Source: Pholidichthys leucotaenia
Lineage: Eukaryota
NCBI GenBank assembly: GCA_020510985.1
Contig: CM035846.1
Coordinates: 202,779,081 to 202,843,080, forward strand
Length of the DNA stretch: 64,000 bases
Direction: 5' to 3'
Below the pieces are notes generated by a model, which saw only the letters and a program-made list of their open reading frames with translations, had not been told where the DNA came from and did not search any database. Numbering within the stretch: position 1 is the first letter of the stretch; every line of letters starts with the position of its first letter. Positions 14,839 through 47,400 of the stretch are shown piece by piece. The position numbers were made by a program, and so were the translations under genes.

Positions 14839-17800
14839 CTTACTGAAGCAGAGCGTCCGTCAAGCACTTCTGACACCATGTAAAGAACTGAGGTCCACAC
14901 GAATAGTGGTTTCAACAAAGTTCTCTTTTAAAACTAGGAGCGGGAACATTAACAGGCGGCAACATCAACACATCGCCATTTTCATCTCATATCACTCGGT
15001 GAAGGTCAACTCTGACCTGTGACGTCACCACAGTCTTAAAGGCACAGCACATATAAATATCACATTATATGACAGGACCCGTGTTCCTTTCTGGAAAAGT
15101 GGATTCCGGAGGCGCTGGGCAGTGCGGAGCTGCGGCCGGCGGTGGTTTTGGAGGGCGCGCATCGTATTGGCCCACGGAGAGATAAGGGACCACCGAGGAC
15201 CTTAATTATGAAGTTTGTCAGCAACAGAGACAGGATGAAGATCTTCAACGCAGCACGAGCTAAAGGAGAGATTAAACACCAGGATCAGCAGGTGCGGTTC
15301 TACCCAGATTGGGCCACAGGAATCCAACAATTGAGGAAGCAGTATGATCCCGTACGTAAGGAGCTGCGCAACCTTGGGATTCGTCATGGTGTAATCTATC
15401 CTGCGAGACTGCTGACCACGTATGGGGGCAGAACCCACATCTTCAAGACCCCAGAGGAGGCGCAGGAGTTTATCAAGAAGATCCAAGAAGAAGAGACTGG
15501 TGGGAGCTAAGCATAAACAAAATATAAGGTAGAATATTTAAGCATTTGCACAGGCATCTGACTGACTTGAAGCAAATAGCAAGTTTACAAAATATAGATT
15601 GCATTATATAATTAAAAAAAAAAAACTATGATGTACAAAGTTGCTAAAAATTTTGGAGTTAAGTTGGAAAACTACAGAGGAGAGTTAATGTTACGTCATT
15701 AAAAGCAGTAGAGTTAGGGTGATTGGGAGGATGAAGGAGTGGCTTAGGCTGATCCTCGTGGATGTGGAGCAGTCGATGGCTATATCGGGAGACGGAATTT
15801 TTCTTTTGATTTTGGGGGGTTTGCCACAAGTGTGGGAAGGGGGAATTTGTTTGTGTGTAGTTTGTAGGATGAATGTTCAACCACTCATTTTTTTGCTTCT
15901 CTGTATGAGCATGTTTACACTGCAAGGTAATCCCAAACTCCCTATTGATCATAAACCAAAGCGTTAATCTTAATTTAACTTCATGGAATTGCAGAGGTCT
16001 ACAAAATTTAAAAAAACTTAAACAAGTTATGAATAAAATAAAAGACATGGGTTCAAAAATTGTGTTTTTACAAGAAACTCATCTAATAGAGGAGGATGCA
16101 AAAAGAATTAGGAGTAGATGGCAAGGAAGTGTTTTCACCTCATCATTTTCATCCCGAGCCAGGGGAGTTATGACTCTCATACATAAATCAGTCCCTTTTC
16201 AAGTGAAAAATGTAATTGGAGACAAATTTGGAAGATATGTAATCATTCAAGGATCTTTGCTATTAGAAAATAGCAAAGATCCTATATGGTGAACCTATAT
16301 GGTCCCAATACAGATGATCAAAAGTTCTTTGCTAATTTATTTCTTATCTTATCATCACTTACAGGGCAACATATAATAGCAGGGGATTTTAATTGTACAT
16401 TGAATCCCGGTATAGATAGATCAACAGGACTGGACTGTACGCACAATGGATGTAGGATGACCATTAATCATTTTATGAAAGAATTGAGATTGCTAGATAT
16501 ATGGAGAGAAATGAAACCACAAGTCAAAGCCTACTCTTGTTATTCCAGTACCTACAAGACATTCTCACGTATTGATTATTTTTTTATTTCCACAGAATTA
16601 AGGTCCAAGATTCAAAACTGCTTTTATGATAACATCGTGATCTCTGATCATGCACCCTGCTGTATTTAGTATATGTAGATAAGAAATTGACAAAGGAATC
16701 AGGTAGATGGCAATTTCAGCATAAATGGCTTCAGGATGAGGAATTTGTCAAGTACATAGAAAAACAGATGAGTTCTTTGATATCAATACTACACAAACAT
16801 CAGCATGTGTAAAGTGGGAGGCTTTCAAAGCTTTTATTAGGGGACATATTATTAGTTATACATGTTCAAAATCTAAGAAGACTCGAGAGGAGAGAGCCCA
16901 ATTGGAACATAAAATAAAAAATCTTCAGGAAAAAGTGTATGCAGGAAGTGATCCAAGGTTGGAGAATGAATTACTGATTTTGAGAGCTGAATACGACAAA
17001 AAATCAGCGAATAGAGCTGCCTCGAGTCTTCTAAGATTGAAACAATCTTTTTATGAACAAGGTGAAAAATCAGGAAAATTATTGGCATGGCAGATTAAAC
17101 AATTAGAAATTAAAACACCAATTACCAGTATTATAAGTAACGGACAGGTAGTTATAGATCCTTTAGAAATTAACAGAGCCTTTAGAGATTACTATGAAAA
17201 ATTATATACCAAAAATGAATCTGATTTAACAAAACTAAATGGGTTTTTGAACGAACTATCTATACCTTGTATTCCAAATGAAAACAGGGAGATATTGGAG
17301 TCTAAAATTAGTCAAGAAGAAGTTGGGCTAGCCATTGATAATATGAAATCAGGAAAAAGTGCAGGACCAGATGGTCTTCCAGTTGACTTTTATAAAAAAT
17401 TTAAGAATAAATTAATAAAACCTTTTTTGGAAATGGTTTTAGAAGCATTTCAAAATAATAATTTACCATCATACATGAATAATGCCTTAATTATACTGTT
17501 GCCAAAACCAGGTAAGCCCTCTAATAAATGTGAAAATATGAGACCAATAAGCCTATTAAATGCCGACCTTAAGATAATCTGTGAAATTTTAGCAAGACGA
17601 ATACAAGAAATTTTACCAAATGTTATTAATCGAGATCAGAATGGCTTTATAAAGGGAAGACAAGGCTTCCATAATGTAAGAAGACTATTTAATATTATTT
17701 ATTTTAATAAAGAAGCACCGGATACAGCTGTCCTATCACTGGACGCCGAAAAGGCCTTTGATAGAGTCGAATGGCCCTTTCTTTTTGAAGTCTTACAAAG

Positions 17801-19039
17801 GTTTGGACTTGGAAATAATTTCATAAAATGGGTTCAGATAATATACAATAATGCTACAGCAGAAATCCTAACAAATAACAATATTTCAAAATCAATAAAA
17901 ATCAATAGAGGATGTCGACAAGGCTGTCCACTTTCACCTTTACTGTTTACTATGGCAATTGAACCTTTAGCGATGGCGATACGTTTACATTCACAAATAT
18001 ATGGAATTAAAGTTGGACCAACAGAACATAAAATCTCCCTGTACGCCGATGACATAATTTTGTTTATGTCGAATCTAAAAAAATCAATTCCGACCTTGTT
18101 GAATTTAATAAAGAATTTTGGGGAAATATCAGGATATAAAATAAATAAAACTAAATCTTCAATATTAATGCTAAATGAGACCCAGAGAAATTACCCAGAC
18201 CCTGAGGTAAATCAATTCAACGTTGTAAATCAGTTTAAATATTTAGGAATCCAAATTGTGCCTAAGCTAGAATCAGTCGCCAGTGTCAACTATGAAGCCT
18301 TAATGACAGATATCAATGAGTCAATTCAGAGATGGATGTCACTACCAATGTCGATGATCGGGAGAATCAATATACTTAAAAGTAATATTTTACCTAAAAT
18401 ACTTTATTTCAATACATTCCCTTACCACCACCTTTAGATTTATTCTCAAGAATTAAAAAAAAGTTAGTGGAATTTATATGGAACAACAGGAGGGCTAGAT
18501 TACGTCTGTCTTTATTATATTTACCATTTGATCGTGGAGGTCTGAAATGTCCAAATTTTATGTTGTATTATTGGTCGGCACAACTGAGGTCTATGACATA
18601 TTATTTTTCATTAAATGATCTCCCTCACTGGACTGAAATGGAATCATACAATTTACCTTTACCTCTTCCCATATTCATATACTCAGATTCGGCAAAAAAA
18701 TTACAAAAACAAGTTAAAAATCCATTTGTAAAGCATATGATCAAAATATGGTGTGAAGCTAAAAATTATTTAAAAGAACCACAGTTATTGTCACCATTTT
18801 GCCCAATATGGGGTAATCAATATTTTAAACCAGGAAGAGCGGACGCTGTATTTAAAGTATGGAATTCAAAAGGGATTCAAAAGATTCAAGATTTATATTT
18901 GCCATGTGCAGATAACATAACTCTCTAAAGCACTCTAAAGGACTGTTTTGAAGCCACCGCCTAGAAGCAGCTCTGCGATCCACATGGTGAGGACATCGAT
19001 GGCCTCATTCACACCTTCACGGGCTACCTCAGCTTCTGT

Positions 19040-20922
19040 GTGGACAAATCCGTTCCCACCAAGACCATACGGCGTCACTCAAACAACAAACACTGGATCA
19101 ACCCTGAGATAAAAACACTTCTGAGAGAGAAGAAGAGGATCTTCAGGTCGGGGAACAGGGAGATGCTGAAGTCCGTACAGAGGGAGCTGAGGAGAAAGAT
19201 CAGAGAAGGCAAGGACAGCTTCAGGAAGAAGATGGAGGACAAGCTGCAACAGAGCGACATCAGCGGGGTCTGGAGAAACCTCAAAACCATCTCGGGGCTC
19301 CAGAATACCTCCCCCCAGGCCACGGGGGGCAGGGAGTGGGCGAACAACCTGAATCTATTTTACAATAGATTTGACCAACCGCCCTCCCCCCTGTCTGCAC
19401 AACAACCACTGCTGCCTCTAAAGAAATCAAGTCCTGCTGCCCACTCCCCACTCCACCAACACCCCCCCACTCCCAACACACAGCCCCCCATCCTGACCCT
19501 GACCGAGACCCAGGTGAGGACGGAGCTGAGGAAGATCAAAGCGAGGAAGGCGCCGGGACCGGACGGCATCAGCGCAAAGCTCCTCAAGTCCTGTGCAGAC
19601 CAGCTGTGTGGGATTGTGACGTACAGTATATCTTCAACATGAGCCTGAAACTGGGGAGGGTACCACAGCTGTGGAAAACATCTTGTGTGGTACCTGTACC
19701 AAAGACTTCCCACCCCAAAGACCTGAACAGCTACAGACCGGTGGCCTTGACGTCCCACTTGATGAAGACCCTGGAGAGACTGCTCCTTGCTCACCTCCGC
19801 CCCCTGGTGGAACCAGCGATGGATCCACTCCAGTTCGCCTACCAGCATGGCATTGGGGTGGAGGATGCGGTGATCTTCCTCCTTCACCGTTCTCTGTCCC
19901 ACCTGGAGAAGCCCGGGAATATGGTGAGGATCATGTTCTTTGACTTCTCCAGTGCTTTCAACACCATCCAACCGATGATCCTGAAGGACAAGCTGCTGCG
20001 AGCAGGGGTGGACCAGCACCTGTCATCATGGATCCTGGACTACCTCACGAACCGGCCTCAGTTTGTGAGAACCCGGGACTGTGTGTCCGACACGATCATC
20101 AGTAGCACGGGGGCCCCCCAGGGAACGGTGCTGGCTCCCTTCCTGTTCACTCTTTATACTGCAGACTTCTCATACAACACAACACACTGCCATCTACAGA
20201 AGTTCTCTGATGACTCTGCGATCGTTGGCCTCATCTCCAATGGAGATGAAGCTGAGTACAGAGGGCTTATCCAGGACTTCGTGGACTGGTGCCATCGGAA
20301 CTGCCTCCAGATCAACGCGAGGAAAACTAAGGAGCTGGTGGTGGACTGCTGCAGGCATGGGCAGCCCCTCACAGCACCAGTAAATATACAGGGAACAGAC
20401 ATCGAGATGGTGACATCCTATAAGTACCTGGGTGTTCATCTGAACAATAAACTAGACTGGTCACACAATACTGACGCACTCTACAAGAAGGGACAGCGCA
20501 GGCTGTTCCTGCTGAGGAGACTCAGGTCTTTTGGTGTACAAGGGGCGCTGCTGAAGTCATTCTATGACACGGTGGTGGCATCAGCCATCACTTTTGGAGT
20601 GGTCTGCTGGGGCAGTGGCATTACTGCAGCCGATAGGAAGAGACTGAACAAACTGATTAAGAAAGCTAGCTCTGTCCTGGGGCAGCGCCTTGATCCGATG
20701 GAGGAGATAGGAGAGAGAAGGACGGTGGCTAAACTGTCATCTCTGCTGGAGTCCGAGTTCCACCCTATGCGGGACATACTGGATGCACTGAGGAGCTCAT
20801 TTAGCAGCAGACTACATCATCCCAGGTGCACAACCGAGAGGTTTCGTAGGTCCTTCCTACCAACGGCTGTCAGACTGTACAACCTAAGCAGGGCTGCTCG
20901 CAGAGATAGCAAAAAGACGTAA
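19040..20922 (+). pseudogene. L2-A ORF2 (post-endonuclease linker + RT + C-terminal domain), one frameshift at ~19610-19640
   Basis: KHWINPEIKTLLREKKRIFRSGN..., RT motifs PGPDGI / FFDFSSAFNTIQP / QGTVLAPFLF / FSDDSAIV. Confidence 0.85.
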
Positions 20923-21089
20923 CAAACTAATAGTTTTTTGACTGCAAAAGATGCAATAGACTTACACAATGGTCCCCTCCGGCATACAACTAGGAACATA
21001 CCGGTCGCTATGGAGGGTGAGAATATGTATGGGCACATAATCATACCATGTAGGATAACTAAGTAGACGGTTATGCTGTTTCATCCCAT

Positions 21090-21410
21090 CTAGCAACAAT
21101 GCTCTGCACTGTGTGTGTTTATATATTTACATATTTATTCCATCTAGCTACAATGCTCCGCACTGTGTTTTTATATATCTACATATTATTCCATCTAGCT
21201 ACATTGCTCCGCACTGTGTGTGTTTATATACTTGCATATTTATTCCACCTAGCTGCAATGCTCCGTACTGTGGGTGTTTATATATTTACATATTTATTCC
21301 ATCTAGCTACAATGCTCTGCACTGTGTGTTCATATACTCATATATTTATTCCATCCAGCTACAATGCTCTGCACTGTGTGTCTGTGTGTGTGTGTGTATA
21401 TATTTATTTT
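21090..21410. repeat. Minisatellite: ~5.5 tandem copies of a ~60-bp unit (tattccatctagctacaatgctc[ct]gcactgtgtgtgtttatatatttacatat) followed by (gt)n, inside L2-A 3'UTR
   Basis: Direct reading; other L2-A copies (220..300, 8240..8300, 46540..46575) contain only one unit. Confidence 0.8.
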
Positions 21411-22631
21411 ATAGTAATATGTACATATGTATATTAGCCGCTCTTGCTTGCTTGTTTTTTTCTTGCCTTCTGATTGTTGCTCTGAGTGTTGCTATCCCTG
21501 TGCTGTTGCAATCCTGGAATTTCCCCGTTGTGGGACTAATAAAGGCTTATCTTATCTTATAATGTCTTTTGAAGAGCTGAGGGTCAAATTTAATCTTAAT
21601 AGAACACATTTCTTTAAATATCTTCAACTTAGAAACTTTATTCGATCAAATCAAAATAAAGCTCTCACTCGACCTATTTATTCATCCTTGGAAAAAATGT
21701 TGATCAAAGATAGTAAAAGAAAGGGTATTATTTCAGAGTTTTATAACTCATTGACACTATCCTCAAGTGAAAATTCACAGAAAAGATTAAACTACTGGAA
21801 AGAAGATCTGCAAATTGAAATTTCAGAGGAACAATGGGAATTGGCTTGTACAGAAGCCCAAACCAAATCAATAAATGTACGTCTTAAATTGATACATTTC
21901 AAATGGTTAATGCGGATGTATGTTACACCGGAGGAGTTAAATAGATATAACAAAAATATACCAGATACATGCACAAAATGCATGGAAAGTAAAGGAACCC
22001 TATTTCATTGTGTATGGGAATGTAGAATAATAAGAATGTTTTGGGAAGAGGTGAGGGTAACAATTGAAAAAATAATCTCAAAACAAATCATTTTGAATCC
22101 TAAACTGTTTTTGTTGGGTCTGTACCCAGAAAAGCATAACTTTAATAAAAGTGAAAGAACATTCATAGACCTCAGTTTGCTTCATGCCAAAAAATGTATT
22201 GCACTACTGTGGAAAAAGACTCATAGACCAGATGTGACTCAGTGGTTAAGACAGATGTTAACAAACCTTCCATTAGAAAGAGTAACATATATACTGAAAT
22301 CAAAGGAAATTGTGTTTGAGAATATATGGAGACCTTTTATTGATCATGTAAAAAATTTAAACATAACTCTTGAAGAAGAAGGTGAATGATGTGTGTGGAC
22401 CTTGTAAATTCCAAACTGGTGAACATAATATGTATACTTATGTAATGGATTGTCTAGACTAAACAGAGGAGCATTGTTGAAGACTTGATTTTGTTGGTGG
22501 TTGTTGGTGTTTTTAGTGCATTTTTTTTTTTTTGTAGTACTTTAGTGTTAGTGTTTGTTTGTGTCATGTTTGTTTAAAAAAAAAAAGGTTCAATAAAGAT
22601 ATTGTGGGGAAAAAAAAAAAATCCCAGAACC

Positions 22632-23385: not shown

Positions 23386-23604
23386 GATTAAGTTTTGTTA
23401 TTGACCAAATACTTATTTTACCGAGGAATTTACCAATTAATTCATTAAAAATCCTTCAATGTGATTTTCTGGATTTTTTTTTTTTCCTCATTTTGTCTCT
23501 CATAGTTGAGGTATACCTATGATGAAAACTGGAGACCTCTCATCTTTTAAGTGGGAGAACTTGCACAATTGGTGGCTGACTAAATACTTTTTTGCCCCAC
23601 TGTA

Positions 23605-24640
23605 CGTTATCACTCCTCCGCCTCTTGCCTTCCCACTGTCTGGTGTTCGGTCTGCCCGTATTGCATGGAAACCCTCCAGTTCAATGTTAGCATCTGTTGC
23701 TAGTTCTGTTAGTCACATCTCAGTAAACATCAAGCTAATCTCTCTGAAGAAGCTCTCGTATCGAGCCATAGCCGCTAGCTCATCTGTCTTCTTGAGTAGC
23801 GATCGAACGTTCCCCATAATATCGGATGGAAGGACGGGTCTGTACCTTATATTTTTCGCTCGCCGTCTTGCTCCAGCACGGCATCCACGTCGTTTCTGTC
23901 TTATTTCACCCGGTATGTTGAGGTCTTGCGCTAGCATCTTGGTCCAGTTAAGTGCTAACAGCTGGTCTCTGCTGTAACGTCCATCCATCCATCCATCTTC
24001 TTCCGCTTAATCCTTTTCGGGTCGCAGGGGGGCTGGAGCCTATCCCAGCATCTTTTGGGCGAGAGGCAGGGTACACCCTGGACAGATCGCTAGTCCATCG
24101 CAGGGCCAACACAGAGAGACAGACAACCTTTCACTCTCACAGTCATACCTAAGGACAATTTAGAATCCCCAGTTTGATGCCAATTAACCTAACTTGCATG
24201 TTTTTGGCATGTGGGAGGAAACCGGAGAAATCCCAGAGTAAACCCACGCAGACACGGGGAGAACATACAAACTCCACACAGATCACTGTTGGTCAAGGGC
24301 TGGGATCGAACCCAGGATCCCCCGGCCAACGGTGAGTTACTGTGCTGCCGCAGTGCTAACCACTCCACCACCGCGCTGCCCCTGCTGTAACGTATCCTGC
24401 TAAAAACAGTGGCTCCGTCTGCTGGCTCAGGAGACATTTGGGCGATCCGTGTGTCTGTGCAATGTATAAGGTGTCACCGGATCAGAAAGATTAGCAAGAG
24501 AAGCCAGATAGTAAATAGAAATAGGAAGAAATTGATCCGCTGTTGCAAAAAGGCAGCCTACTTGTGTGGCGCCGGAAGTATAGTTAATATTTGCTATATT
24601 AACTATAAGTATAATTAATATATTTGCTAATATTAGCAAA
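23605..24640 (-). mobile_element. L2-A 5' fragment (5'UTR-like region + start of endonuclease ORF ..MGNVRSLLKKTDEL..), abutting the Tc1#3 right end
   Basis: ORF 23713..23988(-) shows CR1/L2 endonuclease start motif; 5' region homologous to 46990..47400. Confidence 0.6.
23981..24382 (-). mobile_element. tRNA-derived SINE with (gatg)n tail, inserted with ~11-bp TSD tgctgtaacgt
   Basis: TSD at 23970..23980 and 24383..24393; same family as 52166..52561. Confidence 0.85.
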
Positions 24641-39358: not shown

Positions 39359-40282
39359 GTCAGTGTAGACTTACCATATGATACAGAAATAGCTCAGGCA
39401 TGAATGTATCCTTTAATGATTCCATTCTTTTTACTTTACAATATTGTTTGTTTTTTTTAGACTCTTTTAGGATTACTATTGAGAAACTCCTCAGTGTCAC
39501 TAGCCAAGCTTTAATGCAGGACAGAGACCCCACTTTCATTTTATAGCGCAAATCCTCACTGATTCTAAAAACTGCTTCTCATTTCGCCGTTGTGTAAATC
39601 AGCTCCAGCTCTGGTCAGGAGGACTCGGACGTTCTGTCATGGCATTTAAGAGTCAGGAGGTAAGCTCTTATTGTCTGTTACCAAATGTTAGACTTGGACT
39701 GCCCAATGCATCTGTGACAATGGATAACTATATCAGTTAGTCAGTAAATACTTGAAACATGACATATGTTGACCCCACATGATCACGTGGTGTCTTTCGT
39801 GACATGTTTGATATCATTTGGAGAGAGACGCGAGCAACACATTTATAGGAAAAGAAGTTCTGTTTGCAAGTGATTAATGTTTTTTTAAATGTGGTAATTC
39901 ACTAAAAGGCTCTGCTTTATTCCTCTTCAGCAATGTCATTTTTGTGACGGGGGTAAAAAGTTCAGTGGCAGATTGTTCTGTGCTCATATTGGTCAGCCTC
40001 ACAGAAGTGATGGAACCATGATTAAAACAAATGTTAACCTGCCTTTTTCACTGCATTAGAATTACACCATACTGTAGATACAGTGGGGGAAATAATGATT
40101 TGATCCCTGCTGAATTTGTAAGTTTGCCCATTACAGAGTAATGAACAGTCCAGAATTTTTATGGTAGGTTTATTTTAACAGGGATACAGAAGGGGACTTC
40201 CGGTTATGGCTGCCACGTAGGACGGACGTGTCTCGCTCTGCTCTGCTCCTGGAGAAAAAAAATCGGCAAATAACTCTCTCAT

Positions 40283-41209
40283 TTGGGACAGAACGTATCC
40301 CAGCATTTGGGCGAGGATATGTCGGCGAAGCCTAAGGCTGGAAAACCAGGAAAAGGAAAAAGCGAGCCGCCGAAACAGTCCAAATTAACGGACTTTCAGG
40401 TCTGTGACGCAGCAAACAAAACTCCATATATGGCGGAGGAGGCTGGCAACGGTGCGATATCTGCGGGGAATGGCGCAGATGCGCTGATGGCTGCCATGAG
40501 TTCAATGAGAGCGGACTTTTCCTCTAGATTTGATGGGATTATGACAGCGTTGGAAGGAATAAGAAAGGAATTGGGTGACTGTGTAGAACGAACGGCGCAG
40601 ATGGAGCTCCGTCTCGCTAGTGCTGAAGATGACGTCACCCGTCTTCAATTAAAGGTGCGCACTTTGGAAAAAAAAAATAAATCTCTGGAAGATAATATTT
40701 TGGATTTGGAATCTCGGTCGAGACAGAATAATTTGAGGCTGGTGGGTCTTCCAGAGGAATCAGAAGGTCGGGACGTATGTTCCTTTCTGGAAAAGTGGAT
40801 TCCGGAGGTGCTGGGCAGCGAGGAGTTGCAATCAGCAGTGGTTCTGGAAAAAGCACATCGTATTGGCCCACGGAGAGATAAGGGACCGCCGAGGACCTTA
40901 ATTATGAAGTTTCTTAGCAACAGAGACAGGATGAAGATCTTCAACGCTGCACGTGCTAAAGGAGAGATTAAACAGCAGGACCAGCAGGTGCGGTTCTACC
41001 CAGATTTGGCCACAGGAATCCAGCAATTGAGGAAGCAGTTTGATCCCATACGTAAGGAGCTGCGCAACCTTGGGATTCGTCATGGTGTAATCTATCCTGC
41101 GAGACTGCTGACCACGTATGAGGGCAGAACCCACATCTTCAAGACCCCAGAGGAGGCGCAGGAGTTCATCAAGAAGATCAAAGAAGAAGAAGAGACTGGT
41201 GGGAGCTAA
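40283..41209 (+). CDS. L1 ORF1p (308 aa, intact)
   Basis: Uninterrupted ORF; coiled-coil region + C-terminal nucleic-acid-binding-like domain. Confidence 0.8.
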   Translation: MGQNVSQHLGEDMSAKPKAGKPGKGKSEPPKQSKLTDFQVCDAANKTPYMAEEAGNGAISAGNGADALMAAMSSMRADFSSRFDGIMTALEGIRKELGDCVERTAQMELRLASAEDDVTRLQLKVRTLEKKNKSLEDNILDLESRSRQNNLRLVGLPEESEGRDVCSFLEKWIPEVLGSEELQSAVVLEKAHRIGPRRDKGPPRTLIMKFLSNRDRMKIFNAARAKGEIKQQDQQVRFYPDLATGIQQLRKQFDPIRKELRNLGIRHGVIYPARLLTTYEGRTHIFKTPEEAQEFIKKIKEEEETGGS

Positions 41210-41661
41210 GCATGAACAAAATATAAGGTAGAATAATTAAGCATTTGCACAGGCATCTGACTGACTTGAAGTAAATAGTAAGTTTACAAAATATAGATTG
41301 TGTTATATATTAAAAAAACAAAACAAACAAACAAAAAAAAACTGATGTACAAAGTTGTTAAAAATTTTGGAGTTAAGTTGGAAAACTACAGAGGAGAGTT
41401 AATGTTACGTCATTAAAAGCAGTAGAGTTAGGGTGATTGGGAGGATGAAGAAGGAGTGGCTTAGGCTGTTCCCCGTGGATGTGGAACAGTCGATGGCTAT
41501 ATCGGGAGACAGAATTTTTCTTTTGATTTTGGGGGGTTTGCCACAAGTGTGGGAAGGGGAAATTTGTTTGTGTGTAGTTTGTAGGATGAATGTTCAACCA
41601 CTCATGTTTTTGCTTCTCTGTATGAGCATGTTTACACTGCAAGGTAATCCCAAACTCTCTA

Positions 41662-44600
41662 TTGATCATGGACCAAAGTGTTAATCTTAATTTAACTTCA
41701 TGGAATTGCAGAGGTCTACAAAATTTAAAAAAACTTAAACAAGTTATGAATAAAATAAAGGACATGGGTTCAAGAATTGTGTTTTTACAAGAAACTCATC
41801 TGATAGAGGAGGATGTTAAAAGAATTAGGAGTAGATGGCAGGGAAGTGTATTCACCTCTTCATTTTCATCCCGAGCCAGGGGAGTTATGACTCTCATACA
41901 TAAATCAGTTCCTTTTCAAGTGAAAAATGTAATTGGAGACAAATTTGGAAGATATGTAATCATTCAAGGTTCTTTGCTATTAGAAAATATAAATCTTGTG
42001 AACTTATATGGTCCCAATATAGATGATCAGAAGTTCTTTGCTAATTTATTTCTCATCTTATCATCACTTACAGGGCAACATATAATAGCAGGGGATTTTA
42101 ATTGTACATTGAATCCAGGTGTGGATAGATCAACAGGACTGGATTGTACGCACATTGGATGTAGGATGACTATTAATCATTTTATGAAAGAATTGAGATT
42201 GTTAGATATATGGAGAGAAATGAAACCACAAGTTAAAGCCTATTCTTGTTATTCCAGTACCTACAAGACATTCTCACGTATTGATTATTTTTTGATTTCC
42301 ACAGAATTAAGGTCCAAGATTCAAAACTGCTTTTATGATAACATCGTGATCTCTGATCATGCACCCTGTTGTCTAATATATGTAGATAAAAAATTGACAA
42401 AGGAATCAGGTAGATGGCAATTTCAGCATAAATGGCTTCAGGATGAGGAATTTGTCAAGTATATAGAAAAACAGATAGACGAGTTCTTTGACATCAATAC
42501 TACACAAACATCAGCATGTGTAAAGTGGGAGGCTTTCAAAGCTTTTATTAGGGGACATATTATTAGTTATACAGGATCAAAATCTAAGAAGACTCGAGAG
42601 GAGAGAGCTAAATTGGAACATAAAATAAAAAGTCTTCAGGAAAAAGTGTATGCAGGAAGTGACCCAAGGTTGGAGAATGAATTACTGATTTTGAGAGCTG
42701 AATACGACAAAAAATCAGCGAATAGAGCTGCCTCGAGTCTTCTAAGATTGAAACAATCTTTTTATGAACAAGGTGAAAAATCAGGAAAATTATTAGCATG
42801 GCAGATTAAACAATTGGAAATTAAAACACCAATTACCAGTATTATAAGTAATGGACAGGTAGTTATAGATCCTTTAGAAATTAATAGAGCCTTTAGAGAT
42901 TACTATGAAAAATTATATGATACCAAAAATGAACCTGATTTAACAAAACTAAATGGGTTTTTGAACGAACTATCTATACCGTGTATTCCAAATGAAAATA
43001 GGGAGATATTGGAGTCTAAAATTAGTCAAGAAGAAGTTGGGCTAGCCATTGATAATATGAAATCAGGAAAAAGTGCAGGACCAGATGGTCTTCCAGTTGA
43101 CCTTTATAAAAAATTTAAGAATAAATTAATAAAACCTTTTTTGGAAATGGTTTTAGAAGCATTTCAAAATAATAATTTACCATCATACATAAATAATGCC
43201 TTAATTATACTGCTGCCAAAACCAGGTAAGCCCTCTAATAAATGTGAAAATATGAGACCAATAAGCCTATTAAACGCCGACCTTAAGATAATCTGTAAAA
43301 TTTTAGCAAGACGAATACAAGAAATTTTACCAAATATTATTAATCGAGATCAGAATGGCTTTATAAAGGGTAGACAAGGCTTCCATAATGTAAGAAGACT
43401 ATTTAATATTATTTATTTTAATAAAGAAGCACCGGATACAGCTCTCCTATCATTGGACGCCGAAAAGGCCTTTGATAGAGTTGAATGGCCCTTTCTTTTT
43501 GAAGTCCTACAAAGGTTTGGACTTGGAAATAACTTCATAAAATGGGTTCAAATAATATACAATAATGCTACAGCAGAAATCCTAACAAATAACAATATTT
43601 CAAAACCAATAAAAATCAATAGAGGATGTCGACAAGGCTGTCCACTTTCACCTTTACTGTTTACTATGGCAATTGAACCTTTAGCGATAGCGATACGTTT
43701 ACATTCACAAATATATGGAATTAAAGTTGGACCAACAGAACATAAAATCTCCCTGTACGCCGATGACATAATTTTGTTTATGTCGAATCTAAAAAAATCA
43801 ATTCCAACCTTGTTGAATTTAATAAAGAATTTTGGGGAAATATCAGGATATAAAATAAATAAAACTAAATCTTCAATATTTAATGCTAAATGAGACCCAG
43901 AGAAATTACCCAGCCCCTGAGGTAAATCAATTCAATGTTGTAAATCAGTTTAAATATTTAGGAATCCAAATTATGCCTAAGCTAGAATCAGTCGCCAGTG
44001 TCAACTATGAAGCCTTAATGTCAGATATCAATGAGTTAACTCAGAGATGGATGTCACTACCAATGTCGATGATCGGGAGAATCAATATACTTAAAAGTAA
44101 TATTTTACCTAAAATACTTTATTTATTTCAATACATTCCCTTATCACCACCTTTAGATCTATTCTCAAGAATAAAAAAAAAAGTTAGTGGAATTTATATG
44201 GAACAACAGGAGGGCTAGATTACGTTTGTCTTTATTATATTTACCATTTGATCGTGGAGGTCTGAAATGTCCAAATTTTATGTTGTATTATTGGTCGGCA
44301 CAACTGAGGTCTATGACATATTATTTTTCATCAAATGATCTCCCTCACTGGACTGAAATGGAATCATACAATTTACCTTTACCTCTTCCCATATTCATAT
44401 ACTCAGATTCGGCAAAAAAATTACAAAAACAAGTTAAAAATCCATTTGTAAAGCATATGATCAAAATATGGTGTGAAGCTAAAAACTATTTAAAAGAACC
44501 ACAGTTATTGTCACAATTTAGTCCAATATGGGGTAATCAATATTTTAAACCAGGGAGAGCGGACGCTGTATTTAAAGTATGGAATTTAAAAGGGATACAA

Positions 44601-45467
44601 AAGATTCAGGATTTAGATTTGCCATGTGCAGACAACATAATGTCTTTTGAAGAGCTGAGGATCAAATTTAATCTCAATAGAACACATTTTTTTAAATATC
44701 TTCAACTTAGAAACTTTATTCGATCAAATCAAAATAAAGCTCTCACTCGACCTATTTATTCATCCTTGGAAAAAATGATGATGAAAGATAGTAAAAGAAA
44801 GGGTATTATTTCAGAGTTTTATAACTCATTGACACAATCCTCAAGTGAAAATTCACTGAAAAGATTAAACTACTGGAAAGAAGATCTGCAAATTGAAATT
44901 TCAGAGGAACAATGGGAATTGGCTTGTACAGAAGCTCAAACCAAATCAATAAATGTACGCCTTAAATTGATACATTTCAAATGGTTAATGCGGATGTATG
45001 TTACACCGGAGGAGTTAAATAGATATAACAAAAATATACCAGATACATGCACAAAATGCATGGAAAGTAAAGGAACCCTATTTCATTGTTTATGGGAATG
45101 TAGATTAATAAGAATGTTTTGGGAAGAGGTGAGGGTAACAATTGAAAAAATAATCTCAAAACAAATCATACTGAATCCTAAACTGTTTTTGTTGGGTCTG
45201 TACCCAGAAAAGCATAATTTTAATAAAAGTGAAAGAACATTCATAGACCTCAGTTTGCTTAATGCCAAAAAATGTATTGCACTATTATGGAAAAAGACTC
45301 ATAGACCAGATGTGACTCAGTGGTTAAGACAGATGTTAACAAACCTTCCATTAGAAAGAATAACATATATACTGAAATCAAAGGAAATTGTGTTTGAGAA
45401 TATATGGAGACCTTTTATTGATTATGTAAAAAATTTAAACATAACTCTTGAAGAAGAAGGTGAATGA
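41662..45467 (+). pseudogene. L1 ORF2 (APE endonuclease + RT + C-terminal domain, ~1270 codons) with two single-base frameshifts in homopolymer runs (~43885 and ~44190)
   Basis: Three consecutive overlapping ORFs 41662..43893, 43883..44218, 44187..45467. Confidence 0.85.
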
Positions 45468-46383
45468 TGTGTGTGGACCTTGTAAATTCCAAACTGGTGA
45501 ACATATGTATACTTATGTATTGGATTGTCTAGACTAAACAGAGGAGCATTGTTGAAGACTTGATTTTGTTGGTGGTTGTTGGTGTTTTTAGTGCATTTTT
45601 TTTTTGTAGTACTTTAGTGTTAGTGTTTGATTGTTTGTATCATGTTTGTTAAAAAAAAAAAAAGGTTCAATAAAGATATTGTGGAAAAAAAAAAAACAGG
45701 GATACAGAAGATCATAAAAGATCCAGGAAAAAAAAAACAACAAAACATTAAATAAGGGCTATAAATTGATTTGTATTTGATTTTGTGAAATAAGTATTCG
45801 ATCCTCAAGCAAAATGTGACTTAGTACTTGGTGGAGAAACCCTTCTTGGCAAGCACAGAGGTCAGATGTTTCTTGTAGCTGGTCACAGGTTTTGCACACG
45901 CCAGGAGGGATTTGGTCCACTTGTCTTCAGACACACTCCAAATCCTGAAGGTTTTCAGGCTGATCCCTCACCTTTCTCAGAATCATCCTTACCCCACGAA
46001 GTGCAATCTTGCATGAAGCTCCAGAACGAGGGCGATGGGCTGTTGTATTTTTTCCATTTTCAAATTATCACGCCAACAGCGGTCTCTTTCTCACCAAGCT
46101 TCTTGCTGGTGGTCTTGTAGCCCATTCCAACCTTGTGCTGGTCTACAATCTTGTCTCTGACATCCTTTGACAGCTCTTTGGTCTTACCCATGGTGGTGGA
46201 GAAGTTTGAATGGAAGAGACTGATTCTGTGACAGGAGTCTTTTATACATAAAATGAGCTGAGATCATTAGTACTTTTCTAAAGGGACAGGACTAATTTAT
46301 GTGCCTCATGGGCACATAACTGATCTGTGTTGGTCAGAATTCTTGCTGGTTGGTAGCGGATCAAGTACTTATTTCACTCAATC

Positions 46384-46575
46384 AAATGCAAATCAAATTT
46401 ATAAGATAAGATAAGATAAGCCTTTATTAGTCCCACAATGGGGAAATTCCAGGATTGCAACAGCACAGGGATAGCAACACTCAGAGCAACAATCAGAAGG
46501 CAAGAAAAAACATCTAGTAAACATATGTCCATATTACTATAAATGTATATATATAGACACACAGTGCAGAGCATT
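46384..46575 (-). mobile_element. L2-A 3'-terminal ~190 bp (last minisatellite unit to (cttat)3 tail)
   Basis: Reverse complement matches 21370..21560. Confidence 0.8.
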
Positions 46576-46613
46576 ATGGTTGGTTGGTGAATGTGCAGCA
46601 GAAAGTCTAAGCT

Positions 46614-46989
46614 CTCTCTCCGCGGATGCAGCGGGCCAGCTGGAAGTCTTTGGGCATGATGGTGACCCCCTTAGCGAAGAAGAGACCACCAGGTGGGCCT
46701 CGCTGGTCTCCTGCAGAGCCATGACGGCGAAGCTCAGGAAACGCAGGACGGTCTTGAAGTCCTGAGCGATCTCCCTCACCAGGCGCTGGACGGGCAGCTT
46801 ACGGATGAGCAGCTCCGTGGATTTCTGGTAGCGACGGATCTCTCTCAGAGCCACGGGCCTGTGACGGCGAGGCCTCTTCACTCTGCCGGTGGCCGGAGCG
46901 CCTCTCCGAGCAGCCCTGGTGGCTAGCTGTCTCCTGGGGGGCTTCTTCCTCCAGTAGATTTTACGGGCGGTCTGCTTGGTTCTTGCCAT
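46614..46989 (-). pseudogene. Histone H3-like gene, disrupted: 1-nt deletion near codon ~100, 24-nt in-frame deletion in the alpha3 region, diverged N-tail (S10I, K27R, K36-region changes)
   Basis: ORF 46537..46989 begins [57 protein letters not shown]; canonical C-terminus ..[20 protein letters not shown] present in -1 frame ending at 46614. Confidence 0.8.
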
Positions 46990-47254
46990 CGCTCTTTATT
47001 ATTCTGTCTTATATTTCTTGCACGCCGCCTAAACTCCAGCCCGGCACCCACGTCGTTTTTGCTACAGCTCCCGGTATGTCGAGTTTCCCATTAGCACCGG
47101 GCGGCGGCCAAGTGCTAGCTAGCACTAGCTCCTCCCCGCTGTAACGTCTCCCGCTGCAAACCGTGGCTCCGTCCGCCGACCCGGGAGACCCCCGGGGCGA
47201 TCCGTGCGTCCGTGACATATATACAGAGTGAAAGGTGTAGAAAGAAGAAGGAAG

Positions 47255-47289
<35 letters not shown>

Positions 47290-47400
47290 TGTTGCAACGG
47301 GCAGCCGACTCGTGTGGCGCCACCGGTCCAGCGGAACCGGAAAATATAGCCTATATTTTCTACAATATTTTCTGTTATATTTTACTTTATAGCCTATATT
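46990..47400 (-). mobile_element. L2-A 5'UTR-like segment (homolog of 23880..24640) with internal poly(A)26 at 47258..47285
   Basis: Shared blocks ..ccacgtcgttt..gctgtaacgt..cgtggctccgtc..gggcgatccgtg..gtgtggcgcc.. Confidence 0.65.

Follow-up and report, generated by a model that had tools for sequence, protein, structure and literature searches.

How did a histone coding sequence come to lie between the two ends of an L2 long interspersed nuclear element (LINE) in the genome of the fish Pholidichthys leucotaenia? The locus belongs to a 64-kb stretch of DNA (the window; all coordinates are window positions, and arrows give the minus-strand reading direction) in which a first-pass annotation, made from the letters alone, had noticed a histone H3-like open reading frame (ORF) framed by segments resembling the 5' and 3' ends of an L2 element. 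The arrangement is probably best explained as a non-autonomous tripartite L2(5')-H3-L2(3') chimera made by an L2 reverse transcriptase (RT). The composite integrated here as one unit, with a 6-bp target-site duplication (TSD) and the (CTTAT)n tail of L2, as target-primed reverse transcription by L2 predicts. This is a new example of a known process, and it is unusual in that the LINE is of the stringent L2 type, that the same LINE stands on both flanks and that the cargo is a non-polyadenylated histone message.

A single insertion into a Tc1 element

The whole block (47385→46404) is 982 bp long and the element itself measures about 0.94-0.98 kb (Table 1). The L2 5' (47344→47003), H3 (47002→46578) and L2 3' (46577→46404) pieces share one orientation and are fused directly, with no spacers, through the internal junctions …AAATATAAGACAGA|ATAATAAAGAGCGATGGCAAG… and …CACCAACCAACC|ATAATGCTCTGCACTG…. 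The 425-bp H3 piece, probably derived from a transcript, includes 13 nt ahead of the ATG and 29 nt past the stop codon, and replaces the L2 interior; what is left of L2 is the 5' part up to about codon 57 of its ORF and the last ~175 nt of its 3' untranslated region (UTR). The H3 sequence had been thought to sit exactly in the ORF slot of an L2, but the junctions fall inside the L2 ORF and inside the 3'UTR, with ~57 codons kept and ~70% of the 3'UTR missing.

The insertion site of the block is the left inverted repeat of a Tc1 element with an internal deletion (47546 down to 40073, minus strand). The right inverted repeat of this Tc1 is split by a 5.5-kb poly(A) LINE (about 40185-45689) flanked by a 14-bp duplication, CAGGGATACAGAAG, and is still usable as a paralogous empty site. 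When 47385→46404 and one TATAAA are taken out, the left repeat can be aligned with the right one (45702-45812) without a break at the junction. One perfect 6-bp TSD (TATAAA; 47391-47386 and 46403-46398) bounds the whole composite, and no TSDs or tails occur between the three parts. The continuous empty site and the single TSD show that the L2(5')-H3-L2(3') block entered as one insertion, and three independent neighbouring insertions at the locus are thereby excluded. The earlier suggestion of a chimera made by a LINE RT, as opposed to independent adjacent insertions, is borne out by the same observations and by the absence of internal duplications and poly(A) tails. Separate neighbouring insertions or an assembly artefact are extremely unlikely as a reading; it would draw on the unequal divergence of the parts from their nearest relatives (69% for L2 5', about 79% at the protein level for H3 and 95% for L2 3'), but all parts abut in the same orientation, and the figure of 69% is due to the age of the L2 5' copy used as reference, with its CpG decay and its short interspersed nuclear element (SINE) insertion.

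Table 1. Components of the L2-H3-L2 block in window positions, listed in the reading direction of the element.
Feature	Position	Strand	Remarks and evidence
TSD, upstream copy, TATAAA	47386..47391	-	In left inverted repeat of host Tc1; empty-site comparison with the other Tc1 inverted repeat
Extra sequence at 5' junction, 41 nt	47345..47385	-	Filler plus repeat of target 14-mer; possibly from 5' end joining
L2 5' segment	47003..47344	-	First letters TTTTCCGG; contains T30 run and remnant of L2 ORF N-terminus
13-nt sequence ATAATAAAGAGCG	46990..47002	-	From last L2-homologous base to H3 ATG; presumed H3 5'UTR remnant
Degenerate H3.2-type histone H3 coding sequence	46607..46989	-	tblastn, Pfam, codon analysis, DNA alignment to canonical fish H3
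H3 3'UTR remnant, 29 nt	46578..46606	-	Ends about where the histone stem-loop would start
Terminal 174 nt of L2 3'UTR	46404..46577	-	(CTTAT)n tail at 46420→46404
TSD, downstream copy, TATAAA	46398..46403	-	Empty-site comparison

The 41 nt that precede the L2 5' segment open with a 27-nt filler (47385→47359), and the remainder (47358→47345) repeats without mismatch the 14-mer AAATATAGGCTATA of 47401→47388. Exactly two copies of this 14-mer occur in the window, one in the target flank and the other 29 nt inward from it, immediately ahead of the L2 5' end. The other LINE family of the window starts at GGGACTTCCGG, and ACTTCCGG occupies the corresponding position in the L2 5' copy, so the true L2 5' end is probably TTTTCCGG at 47344 and the 41 nt are probably junction debris. 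There is also a resemblance between the target site (…AGGCTATAAA) and the L2 3' end (…AGGCTTATCTTAT), and together with the repeated 14-mer it hints at a part for microhomology in priming and in joining the 5' end. As a separate observation, an ETS-like CTTCCGG motif is found at the 5' terminus, or directly beside it, in two unrelated LINE families (47344, 24580 and 40185), within TTTTCCGG and ACTTCCGG of L2 and GGGACTTCCGG of the poly(A) LINE, and suggests a common type of internal promoter start.

The age of the insertion can be approached through CpG content, for which the observed/expected ratio is 1.17 in the L2 5' piece and 0.68 in H3, compared with a window average of 0.44, 0.37-0.43 in older L2 copies and 0.25-0.27 in the host Tc1. 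Together with the perfect TSD and the near-identity of the last ~97 nt to another L2 tail, the high CpG content suggests that the insertion is young. The heavy alteration of the H3 sequence therefore predates this copy.

The L2-derived ends

The proposed L2 homology upstream of H3 holds up in an explicit alignment, made after a SINE had been taken out of the reference L2 5' copy: 228 of 331 columns (69%) are identical between 47321→47003 and 24573→23839, with an E value of 1e-25. The reference copy (24620→23605, minus strand), in which this SINE is flanked by a 12-bp duplication, encodes a typical fish L2 N-terminus (…YSRDQLLAL…RRGCRAG…RPVLPS.IMGNVRSL…). In protein comparisons, the L2 proteins of other fishes join that N-terminus to the RT family present in the window, and the 5' piece of the chimera thus comprises the L2 5'UTR and ~57 codons of the L2 ORF. 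The remnant of the L2 N-terminus is seen as a 70-codon ORF (ATG at 47218, stop at 47011→47009), frame-broken within the RRGCRAG motif, and the L2 homology of the 5' segment stops at …AAATATAAGACAGA (47003).

Within this segment lies a homopolymer that had been recorded as a poly(A)26 run at 47258..47285. It is in fact 30 nt long (47286→47257), consists of T on the sense strand of the element and belongs to the L2 5'UTR, where it reads as an expanded T-rich stretch. Its interpretation as the poly(A) tail of an antisense retrocopy was considered and rejected, since L2 homology runs on at both sides.

The L2 3' end sets in at ATAATGCTCTG (46577), where the last unit of a 54-bp tandem repeat begins, and it has counterparts in four further L2 tails of the window. 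Against the tail at 21361-21560, which belongs to the L2 copy at 19040-21560, it shows 163 identities in 171 positions (95.3%), with one mismatch in the last ~97 nt, and identity to L2 falls sharply upstream of 46577. The L2 3'UTR end and its (CTTAT)n tail had been correctly recognised from the start; the same tail is carried by the other L2 copies of the window and is a tandem-repeat tail, not poly(A). In the L2 3'UTR at 21086-21381 the 54-bp repeat is present in 5.6 copies. Since the L2 3' part of the chimera begins precisely with the last 54-bp unit, template switches or breaks may favour the boundaries between repeat units. By eye only, a short UCCC/GGGA hairpin candidate was also noticed in the L2 3' tail, and no recognition stem-loop is claimed.

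No endonuclease (EN) or RT was found between 47003 and 46577, and only ~57 degenerate N-terminal codons are left of the L2 ORF. The element is non-autonomous. Both termini of the parent LINE have been kept and its interior has been lost, with the qualification that the 5' and 3' references are different L2 copies tied together only through the L2 proteins of other fishes. The single reference that the first-pass annotation called L2-A has accordingly to be divided into two oppositely oriented copies, one providing the 5' region (24620→23605, minus strand) and the other the RT and 3' tail (about 18950→21560, plus strand).

These neighbouring copies show some further features. The SINE in the L2 5' copy (23980-24393) has a tRNA-like head, a (GGAT)n-rich end and the 12-bp target duplication ACGTTACAGCAG, and this L2 copy is itself cut short at 23604 by a Tc1 element. 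The 5'-truncated L2 copy at about 18929-21560 (plus strand) sits in ORF2 of a poly(A)-LINE copy (16902-22389) and has an intact RT ORF of 438 amino acids (19606-20922), while an artefactual ORF (21427-22389) runs from the L2 tail into the poly(A) LINE. The window as a whole is transposon-rich teleost DNA, with Tc1-like elements, a Gypsy-type element (851-aa ORF), two poly(A)-tailed LINE copies and several L2 copies. No transposable element proteins of Pholidichthys were found in a protein search with the L2 RT, and the protein annotation of this species is probably repeat-masked.

The histone H3 part

Canonical H3 matches the window in two adjacent frames by tblastn, residues 1-102 at 79% identity (E 8e-44) and residues 115-136 in the neighbouring frame, and the Pfam Histone profile matches with an E value of 2.9e-19, covering only positions 20-92 of 122. 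The original reading of an H3-like ORF whose C-terminus is reached after a 1-nt deletion is therefore sound, with one adjustment: the missing G lies at about 46686/46685 and not at ~46650. The ORF starts with an ATG at 46989 and ends with a TAG at 46609-46607, and its frame-corrected product has 127 amino acids. The presence of A31 and of the S/F-A-V-M motif identifies the source as a replication-dependent gene of the H3.2 type.

Codon analysis against canonical H3 retrieves the tail substitutions and the 8-aa deletion noticed at first sight and adds to them. Residues 10-15 have been rewritten with a net gain of 3 nt, G44-T45 are deleted (-6 nt) and E105-H113 are replaced by a single F, a net loss of 8 amino acids (-24 nt) that removes the end of helix alpha2 and part of the H3-H3' interface. 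The substitutions are S10I, K18R, K23R, K27R, S28G, G34R, K37R, H39R, Y41H, F67V, D81V, Q85L, S87F, A95T, Y99H and I124F. Lysines K4, K9, K14 and K36 are retained and K18, K23, K27 and K37 have all become arginine, with no change from lysine to glutamate. G34R is known as a substitution of oncohistones. Separately, the non-synonymous changes on the sense strand include six A>G and two T>C, for which chance, charge-preserving selection or RNA editing of an intermediate are conceivable. An ADAR-like excess of A-to-G changes was dropped as a candidate, the counts being too small and confounded by lysine codons.

The surroundings of the H3 ORF may be those of a fragment of a transcript, with boundaries at -13 and +29. 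Upstream, two in-frame TAA codons stand at -12 to -7 within ATAATAAAGAGCG. They take the place of the in-frame stop that had been put 18 nt before the ATG; the stop codon 19-21 nt before the ATG is that of the upstream 70-codon ORF, in a different frame from H3. Two further ATGs also precede the H3 ATG, and no H3 promoter (CCAAT/TATA) is present upstream, the Characodon H3 locus serving for comparison. On the 3' side, where the ~29-nt flank (46606→46578) had been described as lacking a histone stem-loop, both Rfam (RF00032) and a pattern scan gave no stem-loop in the element or in the whole window, and a poly(A) tail and poly(A) signal are likewise absent from the H3 3' side. In the canonical H3 of Characodon 27 nt separate the stop codon from the stem-loop, compared with the 29 nt kept in the chimera. 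Histone H3 genes have no introns, so a DNA origin of the H3 piece is also possible.

The reading frame of the window copy is a relic, and a product without residues 105-113 is very unlikely to be nucleosomal. Of the two options first offered for it, a decaying retrocopy or a divergent variant, the former suits the window copy, with its frameshift and missing part of alpha2, while a functional variant is unlikely.

A second H3 copy

A protein search returned KAM9375479.1, a Pholidichthys leucotaenia protein of 127 amino acids with an intact frame, annotated as 'histone H3, embryonic-like isoform 2-T2'. It has every derived tail change and both deletions of the window H3, and differs from the frame-corrected window ORF only by R83S, G108R and C121R (about 99% identity). 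On the strength of this record, at least one further near-identical H3 sequence exists beyond the window copy, and it may be either another such chimeric copy or the source of the H3 template. In the annotation it is isoform two of its gene, perhaps on the basis of transcript evidence. Neither a variant-specific protein search nor HMMER over 1.84 billion representatives produced further variant copies or a longer isoform of this gene. The 64-kb window holds no other fragment of the chimera, and the two junction sequences had 0 matches in metagenome contigs, as expected of a collection without fish genomes.

The intact 127-aa frame of KAM9375479.1 raises the possibility of a functional divergent H3 variant, whether a host gene or a protein encoded by the element under the L2 5' region, with the window copy as a paralogue that became a pseudogene recently. 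All three indels common to both copies are in-frame (net +3, -6 and -24), the four lysine-to-arginine changes without any to glutamate leave the tail with a net gain of positive charge, and CpG has been retained. However, a neutral simulation gave a probability of about 0.45 that an H3 coding sequence with this much change stays free of stop codons, so the open frame of KAM9375479.1 is no evidence of selection. The loss of E105-H113, the lack of a stem-loop and of a poly(A) signal, the upstream ORF and additional ATGs, and the frameshift of the window copy also speak against function, as does the AlphaFold2 model of KAM9375479.1, in itself uninformative (pLDDT 57, pTM 0.20). A functional variant is therefore improbable. 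From the alpha2 deletion and the L2 surroundings of the window copy, KAM9375479.1 is probably transposon cargo or a pseudogene, not a histone gene. Still less probable is a more elaborate version of the idea, in which the window copy is the decayed member of an active L2-derived lineage whose masters keep the H3-derived ORF under selection, as a transposon-borne mimic of the histone tail or as a basic RNA-binding protein that replaces the LINE ORF. Such an ORF would have K4 and K9 intact, arginine at 18, 23, 27 and 37, G34R and extra basic residues, and would be without the nucleosome-forming end of alpha2. If this were true, the H3-derived ORF of such a lineage might lure away chromatin-silencing enzymes as a decoy or play the part of an ORF1-like chaperone.

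Origin of the chimera

Formation of the tripartite chimera by the L2 RT would proceed in three steps. The enzyme would prime on its own 3' tail and copy about 175 nt, would then switch template to an H3 mRNA just 5' of its stem-loop, and, having copied H3 to 13 nt before the ATG, would switch back to an L2 RNA inside the 5' part of the ORF. A rearrangement or replacement at the DNA level in an earlier source copy could lead to the same product. With the conserved L2 3' end kept, and the L2 5' end as well, the product could be recopied in trans by L2 proteins.

Several points weigh against a chimera made in this way. There are 41 nt of extra sequence at the 5' junction, and the 5' and 3' L2 parts are not linked to one full-length L2 copy within the window. 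A C/A-rich stretch, CCAACCAACC, can be read as H3 3'UTR or as L2 repeat. A stable, covarying stem-loop was not demonstrable by folding in the L2 3' tail (no covariation; z-score +1.2). No second copy with the same junctions was seen, in searches that covered no fish genome and not the flanks of KAM9375479.1, whose H3 ORF is the only other one in evidence. Lastly, H3 appears to differ from canonical H3 by ~7% at non-synonymous sites and by three indels, as against a total of 4.7% between the L2 3' part and another L2 copy. This gap, resting on small numbers, fits a recent jump onto an already-diverged H3 transcript slightly better than a long-lived chimeric lineage.

The history of the chimera after its formation can be told in two ways. 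It may belong to an actively propagating, non-autonomous L2-derived family carrying H3, in which case the chimera would be old, would have diverged while being copied and would be present in many copies sharing both junctions, each within a TSD of its own. This is a real possibility, if somewhat short of an even chance. It would account for a young insertion with an already heavily altered H3, the alterations being older than the insertion, for the near-identical second ORF and for the frame-preserving nature of all three shared indels, and the element retains an L2 5' end with a CpG-rich, promoter-like region as well as the conserved 3' end. Elements of comparable make-up, the SIDEs (short internally deleted elements) derived from CR1/L2-like LINEs, are known but rare (PMC6740152). 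Less easily reconciled with such a family are the lower divergence of the L2 3' part than of the H3 part, the evidence for one other copy only, and the failure to find more annotated relatives by variant-specific search or other fragments in the window.

Alternatively, the window would hold a one-off chimeric retrocopy, dead on arrival, and KAM9375479.1 would be a separate, transcribed and diverged H3 gene or pseudogene unlinked to L2. The H3 part is indeed about 99% identical to KAM9375479.1 while the L2 parts look fresh, the isoform annotation allows for transcription, and tripartite chimeras reported elsewhere are one-offs. However, an H3 with a rewritten tail patch and nine missing alpha2 residues would be an odd expressed host gene, and a full L2 5' end demands a second, long-range template switch. 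A one-off origin is rather unlikely.

Comparison with known chimeric retroelements

Chimeras of three parts, flanked by TSDs and resulting from double template jumps of a LINE RT, have been described as WEIRD/Mg-SINE/MGL in Magnaporthe, with human and other mammalian examples (Gogvadze et al. 2007, PMC2104539). The block resembles these tripartite retrogenes (PMC2104539) in having three pieces, here probably transcript-derived, head to tail in one orientation, with the LINE 3' end at the 3' side, in the single pair of short direct repeats around the unit and in a gene piece that has no promoter. It differs from them in that a single LINE family supplied both its first and its third piece, and the product consequently looks like a LINE with a swapped interior. 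The RT involved is here of the stringent L2 clade, with a microsatellite tail, in place of the poly(A)-type L1 or MGL, and the piece in the middle corresponds to a histone mRNA without poly(A), truncated at the stem-loop.

In U6-L1 and other bipartite chimeras of mammals, a template switch of the RT fuses a host RNA to the 5'-truncated 3' part of a LINE within one TSD. Those chimeras are L1-driven, have poly(A) tails and usually contain the host RNA complete to its 3' end, whereas the window chimera has, in addition, a LINE 5' part upstream of the host RNA. With the processed pseudogenes and retrogenes made by L1 it shares a copy of a host coding sequence without a promoter, here probably RNA-derived, but it ends in an L2 tail and has no poly(A) next to the TSD. 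Replication-dependent histone mRNAs have no poly(A) and are poor substrates for L1.

Fish provide a further parallel in UnaL2 and UnaSINE, a SINE/L2 partnership through a common 3' tail. The ORF2 proteins of the zebrafish elements ZfL2-1 and ZfL2-2 recognise the 3' tail strictly (Hayashi et al. 2014, PMC4176376). Like the fish SINE/L2 pairs, the chimera has at its 3' end the conserved terminal ~100 nt of the local L2 family together with the repeat tail, by analogy the part that stringent L2 proteins would recognise; unlike fish SINEs, it has no RNA polymerase III head, and a stable stem-loop is not demonstrable. SIDEs such as Persaeus, derived from the CR1 element Zenon in Lepidoptera (PMC6740152), likewise retain both ends of the parent LINE, are devoid of EN and RT and depend in trans on a partner LINE through the common 3' end. 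However, SIDEs carry no foreign coding sequence, and amplification at the family level is documented for them, while the chimera is known from one locus. Literature searches for a chimera of L2, or of any LINE, with histone H3 found nothing specific.

Implications for L2 elements and their hosts

LINEs of the stringent kind, L2 and CR1 among them, accept as template only RNAs with their own 3' tail, a requirement that is thought to explain why they have left few retrocopies of host genes. The locus described here shows a way round the tail requirement of L2, in that the enzyme would start on its own tail and then switch to a host mRNA. Moreover, the cargo is a non-polyadenylated histone message, which is not normally picked up by machinery of the L1 type. 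For annotation there is a warning, as the GenBank entry named 'histone H3, embryonic-like' is probably transposon cargo. If the chimera were multi-copy, it would represent a natural L2 vector with a host coding sequence between LINE ends, and would provide both a useful phylogenetic marker and a test case for the gain of new ORFs by LINEs.

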